A stretch of DNA of 64,000 nucleotides, taken from positions 3,360-67,359 of the forward strand of contig JBGVKW010000059.1 in assembly GCA_045123895.1 (NCBI GenBank), written 5' to 3'. The translations under genes and the position numbers were made by a program. A model generated the notes under the pieces. The model was not told the DNA's origin. It saw only the letters and a program-made list of their open reading frames with translations, and ran no database searches. Positions 1-36,326 of the stretch are shown piece after piece; position 1 is the first letter of the stretch, and each line of letters opens with the position of its first letter. This DNA is from Agathobacter sp. GTDB taxonomy: Bacteria > Bacillota > Clostridia > Lachnospirales > Lachnospiraceae.

Positions 1-269
1 CTTTCCACATGTAATATGTATTTAAGAAAGAGCGTTCTCAATTCTTCATCAAAGTAATAAAAGGCGGTTATTTCTTCAAAGGTGACACCATGTAGGTAAT
101 TCCCTGATGGCTTATGCTTAAATAAATCTTTATATCCACCAATTAATGAAAAATAGCTTAGTTTTTGTAATGTTATTCTGGCAAATTCAGGATCAGAAAT
201 AACAAGCTGTTTTTCTTTTTCCAGTTTTTTAATTTGCTCATCATATGTGAGAAATGTTTTGTTAGCCAT
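1..269 (-). CDS. Abi_2 (AbiD/AbiF) family abortive-infection protein, N-terminal part (runs off the window start)
   Basis: Not in ORF track. Manual translation MANKTFLTYDEQIKKLEKEKQLVISDPEFARITLQKLSYFSLIGGYKDLFK...GVTFEEITAFYYFDEELRTLFLKYILHVE matches the Abi_2 N-terminus (F.TY.EQI..L, SY..L.GY, TFE.I...Y.FD.ELR); AGGAGG RBS at 278-283. Confidence 0.8.
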   Translation of the reverse strand, partial: MANKTFLTYDEQIKKLEKEKQLVISDPEFARITLQKLSYFSLIGGYKDLFKHKPSGNYLHGVTFEEITAFYYFDEELRTLFLKYILHVE

Positions 270-297
270 CTCTGAATCCTCCTTTGTTTTGTGGCAT

Positions 298-368
298 AAA
301 AAAAGTGGAGCCCACGCATGGAACTCCACCGGCTGCGGGCATCGCAAGTTTCCGCAGCGCAACCACTA
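298..368 (-). ncRNA. Candidate small structured RNA / attenuator leader upstream of the AbiF-family gene
   Basis: Two hairpins (GCTGCGG/CCGCAGC 332-358; GTGGAG/CTCCAC 305-329) followed on the minus strand by U7 (298-304), downstream of a consensus promoter. Confidence 0.6.
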
Positions 369-373
369 AAGAT

Positions 374-402
374 AATGTACCATTGAAAACAAAAACTGTC
401 AA
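374..402 (-). promoter_or_regulatory. SigA promoter for the leader RNA/abiF
   Basis: Minus strand TTGACA (402-397), 17 bp, TACATT (379-374) with extended TG. Confidence 0.75.
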
Positions 403-447
403 ATGGATTTTTAGTGGTGGTAGTAGTTTATGCGTCACAAATTAATA

Positions 448-2820
448 TTATTCTAATTGTTTTAAAACCGATTGTTTCACCCCAAGAAACTTATCTCTGT
501 ACTCAATCGCCTTTTCCGGCTTCTTCCATCGTGCATACAGATTATTCAGATACCGATAGGTAGTCTTCATATAGTCATTATCCGTACCCACAGCATTACA
601 AATAATACTTTCTGCCACAAGCTAGTTAATCTCAGCCGATTCCGGCGTTCCTTCCATCATATCAATGATGCCTTTGCTCAGCTTGCAGATACCATAGTCA
701 AGAGAGGTATCTGACAGATGCTCCAGCACTAATGATTCATACTGTTCCAATACAATCTTGGCATTGTCCACATCCTTTGCCAGCAATAGTATATTGATAA
801 GGTTCATCATCTGCTGCAGGGAATCATGGGATTCGGTTAGTCCCAAGTGTGCATATTCCATACGGATATCAAAGGCTGTACGGAGTGCATTGGCTGCCTC
901 ATTTCCACGCTTCATCAGCAGATAAGTGTGGGAAAGGTTGTTGTACAGATTGGATAGCAGGTTTGCAGTTCGTATATCTGCATCGTTAGTATGAAGCTTT
1001 TCCATGATGTTGATTGCCTTTTCACGCTTCTTAACTGCATTTCCGTAATCTTTTTTCAACAGAAAACACTCCGCCTTATAATCCAGTAGCAAAGCCCTGT
1101 CACATGGAGAATCCAGTTTATATTCTTCCATAAGGTAGCTGATTCTATCAGTTAGTTTCGGCAGGTAATCCGATACAAGGTATTTGTCCAGATATGGGAA
1201 CATATCCTGTAAAAACAGTAAGAAATATGCACCATCATCTACTATAATGCGCTCTGATACACTGATAAGGGAAGCAATGATATTTTCTGGCCTGCGAAGT
1301 TCCAAGCCATGTGCCAGGCAGATAAGGTGGAGGCTATTAAGCAGAGTCCGGCAGGCAGTCACGGTTGGTATGGTTTCAATGGAAATTACTTCCTGTAATA
1401 GTGGATGCAGGCTGATTTTCTTGTTATCTGTATCTTCGTTAATAAATCCGTACTTGATAAGGTGGTTTACATCCAAAAGGTTATCAAGCTTCATCCAGTT
1501 CTTGAAGCTATTCTTTAATATGCCGGCAACCGGTAGCAGAGACAGATTGCGAAGAATGTCCAATTGCTGATTGGACAATTTACCAAGTTGTAGGAGCTTT
1601 CGTAAATGCTCTATCATCAGTCCGTCGGTAAAATCATCATCTTTATACAGTTCCACATCTTCCCCGGAGGCGATATTCAGTCCACAGGTTCTCAGTTCAG
1701 CAAGCAGTTCTTCCGGCTCCATACCGCTGGCTGTCAGGGATAATGAAGACAGGCATACAGTAAGGGTGTGACAGCCTACCGTCTGGATAATGTCCTTTAC
1801 TACATCTTCAGAACCCTTTGCAGAAGGGCAATGCTTATAAAACAGTTCTACAAGCTCTGTATCTGCGTCCATTTCAGAAACTTTTACCGTCTCAAACTGA
1901 GAGATATTGCACCGGCTGGTGACCAGTATCTTACAATTCAATTTTATAAATTCCTTAAAGAAAGCATCCTCTTTTGGCAGGACATTGAAGTTGTCAATGA
2001 TAATGAGACTGTCAGAGTGGAGCTTTTTAAATAGTTTCATGTGCCTGTCAAGGAGCATATCTTCGCTCATGTCCGCGGTATCATCGCTAAATTCCATCTG
2101 AGCAACACATTTCTTTAAATTACCATCGTAAAATAAGTGAATGATATTGGTATATTTCTTTTCATTCTTTTTGGCATAGGTCTTTGCCAGTTCACTTTTA
2201 CCCATACCGGCAGTGCCGGTGATAAATACAAGATTGTTTTCTTGCAAAGCTTTGCTAATGGCCTTTAATTCCTCTTTTCTTCCGAGAAAATAGCGGTTTA
2301 CAGAAGGAAGCTTGTTACTCAGTAGAATATCCGATAAATTGGGAGATAACAGGGTGTGTCTGCTGTCATGGTCATTTAATATGGCGTAACGGACAAGAGC
2401 GGTAATAAACTCTGCATCATCGGTTATCTGGGCAAATTCATCTGCCTTTTTTGTACCAATTACATCCACACTGTCAATAATCAATTCTAAAAGCAGTTTC
2501 CTTGTGGCTGGCACATTGATAAGGTTTGGAATTACATCATCCTGAATATTATCCTGAATGCCGGCAAATCCACAATTGTCATAAAAGCACAATATTTCCT
2601 TGGGTATCGGGCGTTCTCCGGTACACCATCTGCTGTAGGTAACATTTTTCTCAAAACCCTCTTTTTCAAATAAATCCATGTTGCACAGGCAGTCGTAGAA
2701 GATGTCTTCAATCATCTGGTACTGTGCATAAGTTTTCTTTTTATTTTCCAATAACACTCCGATTACGTTGGAGAAGGTAATGCGGTTTTGCAATTCATCA
2801 CTTCCTAACTTTTTCGTCAA
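448..2820 (-). pseudogene. HTH-like N-terminus + NB-ARC/STAND P-loop NTPase + TPR repeats, interrupted by an in-frame TAG at 622-624
   Basis: Walker A GTAGMGKS, Walker B LIIIDNF, HPLLQE winged-helix motif, TPR-like C-terminus. The frame continues after the TAG for 57 codons (LVAESII...YRYLNNLYARWKKPEKAIEYRDK...LE, stop 448-450). True start may be slightly downstream of 2820. Confidence 0.75.
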
Positions 2821-2929
2821 CTTCCGGTCAGCTTTCCGTCAATGATAATCCAAGACGAAATTTCGTATCATTAACCCATGAAAACGTAGCCACCAGAAGC
2901 CATGAGAGAAATGGCTTGGCTACAAGAAG

Positions 2930-2958
2930 ATTATAACACAAAAAAGAACAAATGTTCT
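2930..2958 (-). promoter_or_regulatory. Extended -10 promoter of the STAND gene overlapped by a Firmicutes LexA (SOS) box
   Basis: Minus strand TGtTATAAT at 2938-2930; GAAC-AAAT-GTTC at 2946-2957 over the -35 position. Confidence 0.55.
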
Positions 2959-3382
2959 ACTAAATCTTTTTGTATTTTGAACCTTGATAAACAATCCAGA
3001 AACGGATTCATGAGCTGTATCTTATGCCAACAGACCTTGCGAGGAAAACTGGAAAGTCAGGAGGAGCGAGGGAAGACACTTCTTTATTCACATAAAGAAG
3101 CCTCCGGCGGATGGCAGAAACGCATAAGGAAATTACCGTGTTACACACGGTGTGCGTTTCGCCACAAGAATGCCGAGGCATTCTTGAATAAAGGATGGGA
3201 AAGGAACTCGAGCAGGAGTAGCCCGCAGGCAAATTGCTAAAGGTCAGCTGTAACGCTGACGGCATAGGATACGAATGGAAGCCAAAAGAACTTTATCTTA
3301 TCAGCAATTCGTGTATTATCACAGCATTTATGCAGAAAGAAGGTGATAAGTCAGATTATTAGGAAAGAGGGGGTGTTAGCTT

Positions 3383-33123: not shown

Positions 33124-35244
33124 ATGGTTATGAAAATGTGCAAGAATTTTATCGCCAAAGTTTTATGTGTAGTTTTGGTGGTAACAATGATGATGGGAAT
33201 GACACCTATCGACGCAAGGGCAGATGAAACTCTGCTTACAACATATGGTAAGACATATGGAAGAGTTGGAACATGTATTAATTACAGCCAGCTCACAAAT
33301 CAGACTGTGCTTAATCATGTAAAGTCACAGTACAACAGTATTACATTGGAAAATGAGATGAAACCTGATGCAATTATGGGAAGCTATGCAAATCAGATTT
33401 CAGTCTCACAGGCAAAAAGTCTTGGATATTACATTCCAAGCAACTATACTGAGTCAACTGTACCAAAGTTAAATTTTGATACAATTGATAAAGTAATGAA
33501 AATCTGCTATGAAAACAATATCGGTATGAGAGCACATACTCTTGTATGGCATAGTCAGACACCAAGTTGGTTTTTCAAATACGGATATTCTTCTTCTAAT
33601 GGATATGTTTCTCAGTCTATGATGGATGCAAGAATGGAGTTTTATATTAAATCCGTAATGAATCATGTATACTCTAGCCAGTATGGAAGCTGTGTATATG
33701 CATGGGATGTTGTTAATGAGTATTTACATGCAAGTAATTCAGGTTGGCAGTATATTTATGGAAGTGTTACTACAAAACCAGCATTTGTAAAGAAGGCCTT
33801 CCAGTATGCATACGATTGCCTTTCGTATTATGGATTAACAAATAAGGTATCTCTTTTTTATAATGACTATAATACTTATATGGAAGTAAATGATGTAATT
33901 ACAATGATTAATTACATTAACTCAGACAAAAAGATTTGTAATGGTGTAGGAATGCAGTCACATGTTGGAACAACATTTCCAAGTGCTGATTATTATGCAT
34001 CAGCATTACAGTCATTTGTAAATGCAGGATTTGAGGTACAGATTACAGAGCTTGATTTTTCAAGTAGCTCAAGTTCTGATCAGGCAAATTATGCTTATCA
34101 GTTAATGAAAAAAGTAAACAGTATTAAAAAAGCCGGTGGAAATATTACAGGTGTAACACTTTGGGGTATTTCTGATGATGTATCATGGATTTCAGCAAGC
34201 AAATATCCATTATTATTCTCATCACTTAATGTACCAAAGGAATCATATTATAAATTCCTTCAGGCATATAGCGAAACTGGATTTAGTAGCTCAAGCAACT
34301 CAGGAAGCTCAAGCAACTCAGGAAGCTCAAGTAGTAGCGATTACGCAACATTATCAGATGGATGGTATTATATCAAGAATGTAAATGCACAGAAATATCT
34401 TCAGGTGCAGGATAACACAGGAAAAAGTGGACAGAACGTTGAACTTGGAACTGGAACAGGAGCAGATGGACAGAAATGGTATCTTACAAACAAGGGAAAT
34501 GGAGTAATAACATTAAAGAGTTCTCTTGGATATATGCTTGATGTTACAGGCGGTAAGAATGAAAATGGTACAAACATTGAAATCTGGTCAGAGAACAATG
34601 GTAACCCACAGCAGTTTATGTTAAAGTCAAATGGCAATAACCAGTACGCAATTGTAACAAAGGTTAGTAGTGGAGAAAAAGGTCTTGATGCTTCAAATAA
34701 GGGAACAGCTGATGGTACAAATGTTCAGCAGTACAGCTATTGGGGAGCAACAAACCAGCTTTGGACATTTGAGAAGGTTAGTACATCTTCATCAAATCAG
34801 GGTACTTTATCAGATGGCTGGTACTACATCAAGAACGTAAATGCGCAGAAGTATCTTCAGGTACAAAACAATGTTGGTGCAAACGGACAGAATGTAGAAA
34901 TTGGAACAGGAACAGGAGTAAAGGGCCAGAAATGGTATGTTACAAATACAGGTGACGGATATGTTACATTAAAGAATGGTAACGGCTATATGCTTGACGT
35001 TCAGTATGGTACAAACTCGGATGGAACAAATATCCAGACATATCAGAGTAATGGAGCAGATGCGCAGAAATTCAAGATTAAATCTCTTGGAAACAACCAG
35101 TACGGAATCTTAACAAAGGTTTCTTCAGATGCAAAGAGTCTTGATGTATACAACTTTGGAACATCAGATGGAGCAAATGTATGTCAGTGGACATTCTATC
35201 AGAATACAAACCAGAAGTGGATATTTGAGGCTTGCAGTAACTAA
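33124..35244 (+). CDS. Secreted GH10 endo-1,4-beta-xylanase with two ricin-B (CBM13) domains
   Basis: Signal peptide; ENEMKP, HTLVWHSQ, WDVVNE, GMQSH, ITELD; two homologous LSDGWYYIKNVNAQKYLQV..QKW modules; promoter TTGACA-17-TATTAT at 33067-95. Confidence 0.92.
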   Translation: MVMKMCKNFIAKVLCVVLVVTMMMGMTPIDARADETLLTTYGKTYGRVGTCINYSQLTNQTVLNHVKSQYNSITLENEMKPDAIMGSYANQISVSQAKSLGYYIPSNYTESTVPKLNFDTIDKVMKICYENNIGMRAHTLVWHSQTPSWFFKYGYSSSNGYVSQSMMDARMEFYIKSVMNHVYSSQYGSCVYAWDVVNEYLHASNSGWQYIYGSVTTKPAFVKKAFQYAYDCLSYYGLTNKVSLFYNDYNTYMEVNDVITMINYINSDKKICNGVGMQSHVGTTFPSADYYASALQSFVNAGFEVQITELDFSSSSSSDQANYAYQLMKKVNSIKKAGGNITGVTLWGISDDVSWISASKYPLLFSSLNVPKESYYKFLQAYSETGFSSSSNSGSSSNSGSSSSSDYATLSDGWYYIKNVNAQKYLQVQDNTGKSGQNVELGTGTGADGQKWYLTNKGNGVITLKSSLGYMLDVTGGKNENGTNIEIWSENNGNPQQFMLKSNGNNQYAIVTKVSSGEKGLDASNKGTADGTNVQQYSYWGATNQLWTFEKVSTSSSNQGTLSDGWYYIKNVNAQKYLQVQNNVGANGQNVEIGTGTGVKGQKWYVTNTGDGYVTLKNGNGYMLDVQYGTNSDGTNIQTYQSNGADAQKFKIKSLGNNQYGILTKVSSDAKSLDVYNFGTSDGANVCQWTFYQNTNQKWIFEACSN
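34288..34331 (+). repeat. 18-bp tandem repeat encoding the Ser-rich linker (SSSNSG)
   Basis: AGCTCAAGCAACTCAGGA x2 plus partial copy. Confidence 0.85.
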
Positions 35245-35351: not shown

Positions 35352-36326
35352 ATGAAGAGATTTAATTGGGTTTCATTAGGCTGTGGGGTAATTGCAAATG
35401 AACTGGCAATGGCGATGCAGAAAGAGGGAAGAAGACTCTACGGAATTGCTAACAGAACATACAGTAAGGCACAGGATTTTGCAAAAAAATATAATGTTGA
35501 AAAAGTATATGAAAATTATGAGGATGTCTATGAAGATGAGAATGTAGACATTATCTATATATCAACGCCTCACAATACACATATTAATTTTTTGCGTGAG
35601 GCATTAAAGCATAAAAAACACGTTCTTTGTGAAAAATCTATCACATTAAATTCAGAAGAATTGCAGGAGGCTAAAAAGCTTGCAGAAGAAAATAATGTGA
35701 TTTTGGCAGAAGCTATGACAATATATCATATGCCAGTTTATAAGCGCCTTGATGAACTTGTAAAAAGTGAGTCACTAGGTGAGCTACGAATGATTCAGAT
35801 GAATTTTGGAAGCTATAAAGAGTACGATATGAAGAACCGTTTTTTCAATCCTTCGCTTGCAGGTGGAGCATTGCTTGATATTGGTGTGTATGCACTTTCT
35901 TTTATCAGATGGTTTATGTCACAAAAACCAGATCAGGTGGTTTCACAGGTTAGGATGGCGCCAAGCGGAGTAGATGAGCAGGCAGGAATACTTCTTATGA
36001 ATCCAGCCGGAGAAATGGCAACAGTTGCACTTTCCCTTCACGCAAAGCAACCGAAGAGAGGAATGGTAGCTTTTGATAAAGGTTATATTGAATTGTACGA
36101 ATATCCGAGAGCACAAAAGGCTGTAATCACATATACGAAGGATGGCCATCAGGAAGTGATAGAGGATGGACTTACAGAAAATGCGCTTAGATATGAGGTT
36201 TCTGATATGGAAAAAACAATATCAGAGGGGATTGATTTAATGCATCTTGATTATACTGTTGATGTCATGTCAATGATGACGGGAATCAGAAAAGACTGGG
36301 GACTTGTTTACCCAGAGGAAAAATAG
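35352..36326 (+). CDS. Gfo/Idh/MocA oxidoreductase
   Basis: LGCGVIA, HVLCEK, GGALLDIGVY. Confidence 0.9.
   Translation: MKRFNWVSLGCGVIANELAMAMQKEGRRLYGIANRTYSKAQDFAKKYNVEKVYENYEDVYEDENVDIIYISTPHNTHINFLREALKHKKHVLCEKSITLNSEELQEAKKLAEENNVILAEAMTIYHMPVYKRLDELVKSESLGELRMIQMNFGSYKEYDMKNRFFNPSLAGGALLDIGVYALSFIRWFMSQKPDQVVSQVRMAPSGVDEQAGILLMNPAGEMATVALSLHAKQPKRGMVAFDKGYIELYEYPRAQKAVITYTKDGHQEVIEDGLTENALRYEVSDMEKTISEGIDLMHLDYTVDVMSMMTGIRKDWGLVYPEEK

Follow-up and report, generated by a model that had tools for sequence, protein, structure and literature searches.

What role could be played by a short, structured RNA that is encoded, between its own promoter and terminator, directly ahead of an abortive-infection gene? 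The question is raised by the left-hand end of a 64,000-nucleotide (nt) stretch of the Agathobacter sp. contig JBGVKW010000059.1 (G000:C59:3360-67359; the whole stretch is hereafter called the window), where the 5' part of an abiF gene of the Abi_2 family and its leader lie on the minus strand. The locus is likely to be a type III-like toxin-antitoxin or abortive-infection module of the AbiD/F (Abi_2) group, in which an RNA antitoxin is combined with transcription termination in cis. The elements that carry this reading, in window coordinates, are:

1-269, minus strand: 5' part of the abiF coding sequence, with ATG at 269-267 (open reading frame, Pfam Abi_2, match to 8VZ6, motif and model)
278-284, minus strand: ribosome-binding site (RBS) AAGGAGG, 8 nt ahead of the ATG and 13 nt past the U-run (sequence)
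298-329, minus strand: hairpin 2, an intrinsic terminator, U7 included (terminator scan and covariation)
332-358, minus strand: hairpin 1 (covariation in the diverse alignment)
359-367, minus strand: predicted 5' single-stranded tail AGUGGUUGC of the small RNA (sRNA) (alignments)
374-402, minus strand: promoter P1 of the sigma-A type, TTGACA 402-397, 17-nt spacer with TG, TACATT 379-374 (motif scan and 64 loci)

The abiF gene and its leader

The first-pass annotation of this DNA had claimed an Abi_2-family gene that the open reading frame (ORF) track had missed, and had placed its HEPN R-X4-H motif outside the window. Both claims hold. The gene runs 669 nt past the window start and was completed with flanking contig DNA; it encodes 312 residues (L001 1219-2157, minus strand, equivalent to G000:C59:2690-3628), and the completed ORF is matched by Pfam PF07751 (Abi_2) with E = 4.2e-46 and 158 bits (cut-off 25.6) over profile positions 2-183 of 184. 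The HEPN motif is present as R209-N-V-C-A-H214, with residues 209-214 encoded beyond the window. RNVCAH has the form R-[NHD]-x-x-x-H that was tested for HEPN membership, and its R, N, C, A and H are invariant among 47 Abi_2 proteins of the same bacterial family. The sole sequence relative of the protein in the PDB is 8VZ6 (E = 1.3e-10, residues 16-305). The AlphaFold model of the monomer (predicted local distance difference test 92.4, predicted template-modelling score 0.89) recovered 8VZ6_A in Foldseek (E = 6e-10, template-modelling scores 0.72/0.75, 313 columns) and no other PDB entry at E<=0.001. 8VZ6_A is a PbAbiF dimer with a non-coding RNA (ncRNA) bound (PMC12737573, PMC12373285); RNVCAH aligns to RNSCCH of PbAbiF. 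By domain, motif and fold, the protein belongs to the AbiD/F (Abi_2) group.

Ahead of the gene, a promoter (TTGACA-17-TACATT, 402-374), two hairpins and a U7 run (298-304) had been described on the minus strand, and all feature coordinates given for them proved correct. The promoter is found by motif scan, and none of 64 distinct loci departs from TTGAC or from the TA...T of the -10 box, while the letters of the spacer vary and its length is kept. Judging by promoter geometry, transcription would start at A367 or G366, 7-8 nt past the -10 box, giving an sRNA of about 70 nt with a predicted span of about 367-298. Its 5' tail begins AGUGGUUG; the family consensus is AGUG(G/A)UY, of which AGUG is nearly invariant. 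Hairpin 1 consists of a basal stem of 7 base pairs (bp; 358-352 with 338-332), a conserved A/G-rich internal loop and an apex in which pair 350-341 is followed by C348-G343, closing a YYGN tetraloop (347-344). Hairpin 2 has a 10-bp stem (329-319 with 314-305) with a bulged U at 323, a UGCG tetraloop (318-315) and then U7 (304-298). A GGAG-type RBS is retained across the homologous leaders.

Two other ways of reading the leader were considered. An N-terminally extended ORF from TTG 362, in frame with abiF, is ruled out by 1-nt indels in the RNA alignment of many homologues; these break the upstream frame, and the leader is therefore non-coding. Further, the pairing of the 5' GUGGU with GCCAC past the terminator, predicted in the minimum-free-energy (MFE) fold, is not conserved among homologues.

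Conservation and clade association of the RNA

A homologue search restricted to one genome per species yielded 79 loci, nearly all from Lachnospiraceae or related gut Clostridia, with AbiF identities of 48-99%. Of the loci that extend far enough upstream, essentially all have the leader, at near-fixed length (more than 60 Lachnospiraceae homologues), and the RNA is better conserved (73-99% identity) than the proteins (58-88%) or the promoter spacer (24-82%). A covariance model of the upstream regions of homologues, which had been suggested as a check, brought out a conserved and covarying structure. Pairing reaches 99.9% of cells in the close set of 46 distinct sequences, where 7 pairs are doubly changed (slid controls 31-51%; none of 500 shuffles does as well). 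When the model derived from these sequences was searched against 150 sampled Lachnospiraceae genomes, 22 were found to hold more distant members. For the diverse set the paired share is 91.5% of cells, with 15 of 20 pairs doubly changed, in 152 cells (slid controls 41-57%; again none of 500 shuffles does as well). About 100 instances of the RNA class have been sampled in all, and in the window (1-64000) the model matches 295-369 only.

Both hairpins take part in this covariation. In hairpin 1, columns 17-33 hold GC 21 times and AU 16 times, columns 20-29 hold AU 17 times and UG 13 times, and the loop-closing CG at columns 22-27 is kept in 39 of 42 sequences. An alternative apical pairing of this hairpin (columns 21-31, 22-30, 23-29 and 24-28) performs worse than C22-G27 plus 20-29. 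In hairpin 2, nine of ten pairs are doubly changed in the diverse set, the loop-closing pair from A-U to C-G among them. The two-hairpin leader is a conserved structured RNA, covarying strongly in both hairpins.

The window (1-64000) contains no match to any Rfam family at or above the gathering score. The abiF motif (RF03085), reportedly described by Weinberg et al. in 2017, resembles the present RNA in being a small hairpin with an internal loop, directly upstream (sometimes also downstream) of Abi_2 genes, and in being found in the same bacterial family and even the same genomes. The two differ in sequence and plan: the RF03085 consensus is CCCGCC-A-AGC-loop-GCU-CAAAUC-GGCGGG, whereas the present RNA reads GCUGCGG-AAA-C-YYGN-G-AUGC-CGCAGC and is joined to a 5' tail and a terminator hairpin. 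Membership of RF03085 is ruled out, with no match at E<=10 in window positions 1-3000, in 255-450 or in the whole genome, while the positive control, the C. difficile phage locus L082 (RCd22), scored 37.6 bits (gathering score 37 bits). The reverse search, with the covariance model built from the present RNA, gave no match at the C. difficile RCd22 locus.

The distribution of the two RNAs was surveyed across the 150 sampled Lachnospiraceae genomes and the one from which the window comes, with 76 Abi_2 matches between them. The present RNA lies upstream of 15 of them (13 in sampled genomes, two of these recovered only through direct locus search, and the two of the own genome), at 106-164 nt from the Abi_2 domain match, and every Abi_2 gene at least 40% identical to the window protein (15/15) carries it. 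RF03085 lies upstream of seven, the six comparable ones being 22-27% identical to the window protein. No gene among the 76 carries both RNAs, and genomes G096 and G103 each have one AbiF pair of either RNA kind. The RNA is of a class absent from Rfam and would serve another AbiF clade within the published kind of toxin/RNA-antidote system. Two RNAs confined to mutually exclusive clades are what cognate, orthogonal RNA-protein pairs would look like.

Apart from these pairs, 54 of the 76 Abi_2 matches have neither RNA upstream at the thresholds used, and further uncatalogued classes of AbiF leader probably exist.

Function of the RNA

Two AbiF systems have been characterised, RCd22-AbiFCd of C. 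difficile and PbAbiF-AbiFr of Prevotellaceae, the latter reportedly by Zilberzwige-Tal et al. (Cell, 2025). The former, from the phi027/phiC2 prophages, has the order promoter-sRNA-terminator-abiF, and its RNA acts in cis, through termination, as well as in trans, through binding to AbiFCd (Saunier et al., 2025, PMC12373285). PbAbiF is described as a homodimer of the HEPN type that a cis-encoded ncRNA inhibits (PMC12737573, PMC12373285), and the ncRNA blocks the HEPN site of AbiF (PMC13064643, PMC12737573). If the present locus is a toxin-antitoxin module of this kind, the strong sigma-A promoter (402-374) would give rise to the sRNA of about 70 nt (about 367-298), and hairpin 2 would be both the conserved UGCG-capped stem and the intrinsic terminator. 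Most transcripts would end at U7 and rare read-through would carry the RBS and abiF, so that toxin synthesis would be kept low in cis by the leader. The abundant free sRNA would bind the AbiF homodimer and block its HEPN RNase site (R209/H214), acting as an antitoxin in trans. Upon failure of the RNA supply or displacement of the RNA, for example during phage infection, free AbiF would cut cellular RNA, leading to growth arrest. The short transcript, the RNA-protein binding, the inhibition, the toxicity and the phage trigger are all expected by homology with RCd22-AbiFCd and PbAbiF-AbiFr.

Action in trans is where the extra copies of the RNA gene become informative. A second copy with its own -35/17/-10 promoter stands directly after the abiF stop codon in at least 18 loci (including L006-L010, L016, L024, L036, L040, L045, L046, L048, L050, L052, L053, L056 and L065) and in another locus of the same genome, on contig C30. 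There a STAND NTPase gene, the RNA and abiF are arranged as in the window, with an identical RNA core, and the second RNA copy (G000:C30:3442-3515, or L087 1501-1574, minus strand) has the 5' tail CAUAUGGUUG. These second copies fall into two groups: one has hairpin 2 without the U-run, a separate strong GC-rich terminator next to it and no gene behind, and the other is followed by an hsdS-like gene; in most such loci no gene follows. Furthermore, the RNA survives as orphan copies next to abiF genes that are truncated or decayed. In L101 (G039:C10), the RNA is accompanied by an N-terminal abiF stub cut by a DDE-transposase-like ORF on the opposite strand; in L115 (G119:C3), by a stub ending after 20 codons; and in L114 and L108, by abiF fragments. 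The one abiF homologue in which no RNA was found, L078, is no more than a fragment of 96 residues. The RNA outlasts the toxin gene and not the reverse, which is the asymmetry expected of toxin-antitoxin pairs. On the evidence of gene arrangement, the extra promoted copies and the orphans argue for a trans-acting antitoxin over a mere attenuator.

A comparable flanking is seen with RF03085, which lies on both sides of one Abi_2 gene (G014:C15:34429-34477 and 35455-35491, gene 34600-35178). The presence of RNA genes on both sides of the toxin may be a general AbiF trait.

Among the alternatives, the one that survives best is that the leader works solely as an attenuator in cis, in the manner of a riboswitch-like or protein-responsive terminator that limits abiF and yields an RNA product without antitoxin function. 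The terminator does stand 13 nt before the RBS, and deletion of RCd22 in C. difficile raised abiF mRNA 17-fold, so a cis effect is real there (PMC12373285). Nevertheless, an exclusively attenuating role is decidedly unlikely for the present RNA. Second copies 3' of abiF have promoters of their own and mostly no gene behind them, orphan copies are kept after abiF has decayed, and the loops, the internal loop and the 5' tail keep their sequence, a constraint that a bare terminator would not require. Nor was a conserved alternative antiterminator fold found. The candidate, an MFE fold of the read-through RNA in which a conserved upstream block ACGCAUAAACUACUACC pairs with the 5' strand and loop of the terminator, lacks covariation: its pairing amounts to 85.1% against 84.4% in shuffles, i.e. 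conservation only. The same block occurs with differing terminator sequences (L029 versus L034), and distant members retain GCATA(A/T)A though the loop has changed to CCUGCGGG. This pairing was rejected.

It is highly improbable that the RNA assists AbiF, as a positive cofactor or guide-like partner required for activity or targeting and comparable to the CRISPR RNA (crRNA) of Cas13, with the invariant 5' tail as its recognition segment. AbiF has been proposed as a Cas13 ancestor (PMC12737573), and the tail is single-stranded, nearly invariant and complementary to a conserved sequence upstream of the promoter. Yet both characterised AbiF systems have an inhibitory RNA, variable targets cannot be encoded by a tail that is invariant over about 100 loci, and orphan RNAs near dead toxin genes suit an antidote better. 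That the leader merely hitch-hikes on recent horizontal spread or recombination of the cassette, with only the promoter and terminator functional, is scarcely credible: the abiF and STAND modules are mosaic and recombination around the conserved intergenic region is frequent, but such spread cannot yield 15 doubly changed pairs at 91.5% pairing, nor can it hold the RNA at a higher conservation than both the coding sequence and the promoter spacer.

Several observations weigh against the toxin-antitoxin reading itself. The protein is only 18-25% identical to the two characterised AbiF proteins. The RNA mismatches RF03085 and has a different internal-loop geometry, and the binding mode is therefore not simply transferable from RCd22. 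The window's own locus has no second RNA gene. Finally, folding z-scores of the leader are only -0.6 to -1.3, an unexceptional energy for a single sequence, and the other single-sequence signals are near chance, with four promoter-like sites found against 3.4 expected and one terminator against 0.5 expected. The leader is accepted as real on comparative evidence, which is decisive; taken by themselves, the single-sequence signals do not rise above chance.

Comparison with known systems places the toxin-antitoxin reading within a familiar plan and shows where the RNA departs from it. The C. difficile system shares the sigma-A promoter, the two-hairpin sRNA, the Rho-independent terminator, the RBS and an Abi_2 gene with RNxCAH, all of which are here read from sequence. 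RCd22 comprises two RF03085 motifs and a separate terminator, about 100-130 nt in total; in contrast, the present RNA has about 70 nt, neither of its hairpins is RF03085, and its second conserved hairpin is the terminator itself. The proteins are about 25% identical, and the present locus is chromosomal and beside a STAND gene, whereas AbiFCd lies inside a lysis module. PbAbiF, the only significant PDB relative, shares the conserved R...H catalytic pair at 18% identity; as described, each of its monomers binds one single-hairpin RNA, unlike the two hairpins plus tail found here.

Among the lactococcal AbiD/F genes, the upstream non-coding region is 68-80% identical against 46-65% for the gene, and abiD1 is transcribed very weakly and can be cloned only with its native upstream sequence, because of toxicity (PMC13064643). 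The higher conservation of the upstream region in the AbiD, AbiD1 and AbiF systems and in AbiD-like ones is repeated here (73-99% against 58-88%); the lactococcal genes are plasmid-borne. The type III systems ToxIN and AbiQ similarly combine an RNase toxin with a cis-encoded RNA that has a promoter, and a terminator between RNA and toxin gene. ToxN and AbiQ differ in not being HEPN proteins and in having as antitoxins tandem 36-nt repeats that the toxin processes; no tandem array is present here. The system is best called one that would work like AbiFCd-RCd22 and PbAbiF-AbiFr, with an RNA that differs through the use of the terminator as second hairpin and through the 5' tail. The first-pass annotation had proposed the RNA leader of a Lachnospiraceae AbiF system; the Abi_2 match, the covarying leader and the RCd22-AbiFCd-like layout support this, and the antitoxin role would follow by analogy.

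AbiF-ncRNA modules have only recently been shown to be RNA-antitoxin systems and are proposed Cas13 ancestors. The present RNA adds a second well-sampled class, coexisting with RF03085 on other AbiF clades in the same genomes, and the two classes provide a natural test bed for the evolution of RNA-protein specificity in the lineage leading to crRNA-guided enzymes. The alignment is a ready seed for a new RNA family, while the second RNA gene and a paired repeat around the promoter represent testable regulatory additions.

Elements upstream of the RNA gene

The repeat and two further elements lie around or upstream of P1:

362-418, minus strand: inverted repeat around P1, upstream arm ACCACTAAA 418-410 and downstream arm TTTAGTGGT 370-362 (arm pairs across loci)
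425-451, minus strand: boxes ATA 451-449 and, after 16 nt, CATAAACT 432-425 (conserved at fixed spacing, with a variable spacer)
448-2820, minus strand: STAND NTPase-TPR gene, co-directional and upstream of the sRNA (AAA, nSTAND, NB-ARC and TPR matches)

A 9-bp inverted repeat (362-370 / 410-418) had been noted around the promoter in the first reading of the sequence. It is present, stretches to about 14 bp with two mismatches, and its downstream arm overlies the predicted start site. An arm pair of at least 6 bp is found at the same place in 56 of 63 distinct loci, with compensatory variants that include paired 2-nt insertions (CACTGTAAA/TTTACAGTG, CACTATAGA/TCTATAGTG, ACCACTAC/GTAGTGGT and CTACAAA/TTTGTAG); the arm pair of a distant member is TCACTAC/GUAGUGA. 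The alignment-based count of arm covariation is only weakly above controls because the alignment cannot place the insertions. The P1 transcript holds only part of the downstream arm, and pairing of the arms therefore needs an RNA started upstream or single-stranded DNA. Phase variation, with the repeat flanking an invertible promoter, is unlikely: the segment measures only about 40 bp and the promoter faces abiF in all 64 assemblies.

The two boxes precede the sRNA start by about 75 and 55 nt. Their pattern, ATA-N15-17-CATAnnnT, occurs at this place in 47 of 64 loci as against 1.2% of background windows, its geometry being less distinct among distant members. The reading frame in which the upstream ORF terminates makes no difference to the presence of the boxes. 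The end of the STAND ORF falls within the second box in the C30 paralogue, where the frame is a different one, and the conservation of the boxes therefore does not stem from coding. In C. difficile, sigma-E/K promoters have an ATA -35 element and a CATA...T -10 element (PMC3789822), and the present genome encodes sigE (355 bits) and a sigK-like gene. The boxes could be a further promoter, of the sigma-E/K (mother-cell) type; transcripts from it would begin at the repeat's upstream arm.

A tentative and rather unlikely extension of these findings is that the module makes two RNA isoforms from two promoters and that, separately, near-identical flanking RNA genes anchor recombination that swaps toxin alleles. 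One isoform may be the P1 sRNA of about 70 nt with a free 5' AGUGGUUG tail. The other, from the upstream boxes or from STAND read-through, would be about 50 nt longer, with the upstream arm of the repeat as its 5' end; pairing of the repeat arms within this form would sequester the tail. If true, the two isoforms would link the activity of the antitoxin, and with it the toxicity of AbiF, to sporulation or to whether the adjacent sensor gene is expressed. As recombination anchors, the RNA genes could act behind a fixed neighbour, as the mosaic STAND and AbiF identities suggest.

A STAND homologue lies upstream and co-directional in 35 loci. A terminator scan of window positions 1-1000 found one terminator only, that of the sRNA, and none between the STAND gene and the sRNA terminator. 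The window's STAND gene is split by an in-frame TAG (624-622, minus strand), at which seven homologues have Leu (TTG/CTG) and continue for about 57 residues, and the C30 paralogue is uninterrupted; the TAG has arisen in this copy either through nonsense mutation or through an error of sequencing. Identities of the two proteins vary independently. L053 has a STAND protein 97% and an AbiF 62% identical to those of the window, while the values for L011 are 59% and 93%. More broadly, L053, L050 and L033 combine STAND identities of 95-97% with AbiF identities of 62-64%, and L011, L046 and L016 combine 46-59% with 65-93%. The breakpoints of recombination appear to lie at the conserved intergenic RNA region. 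That STAND and AbiF form an obligate two-gene system is disfavoured, with about half of the loci lacking STAND upstream and the gene identities uncoupled. By the same uncoupling, the two genes are therefore neighbours in a recombining defence spot and not a co-evolving pair. The adjoining STAND NTPase and homologues on faecal phage contigs give the locus what, from its sequence, looks like a defence-like genomic context. Homologous modules are present on two unannotated faecal phage contigs, one of which, MT838012 (L084), carries the RNA.

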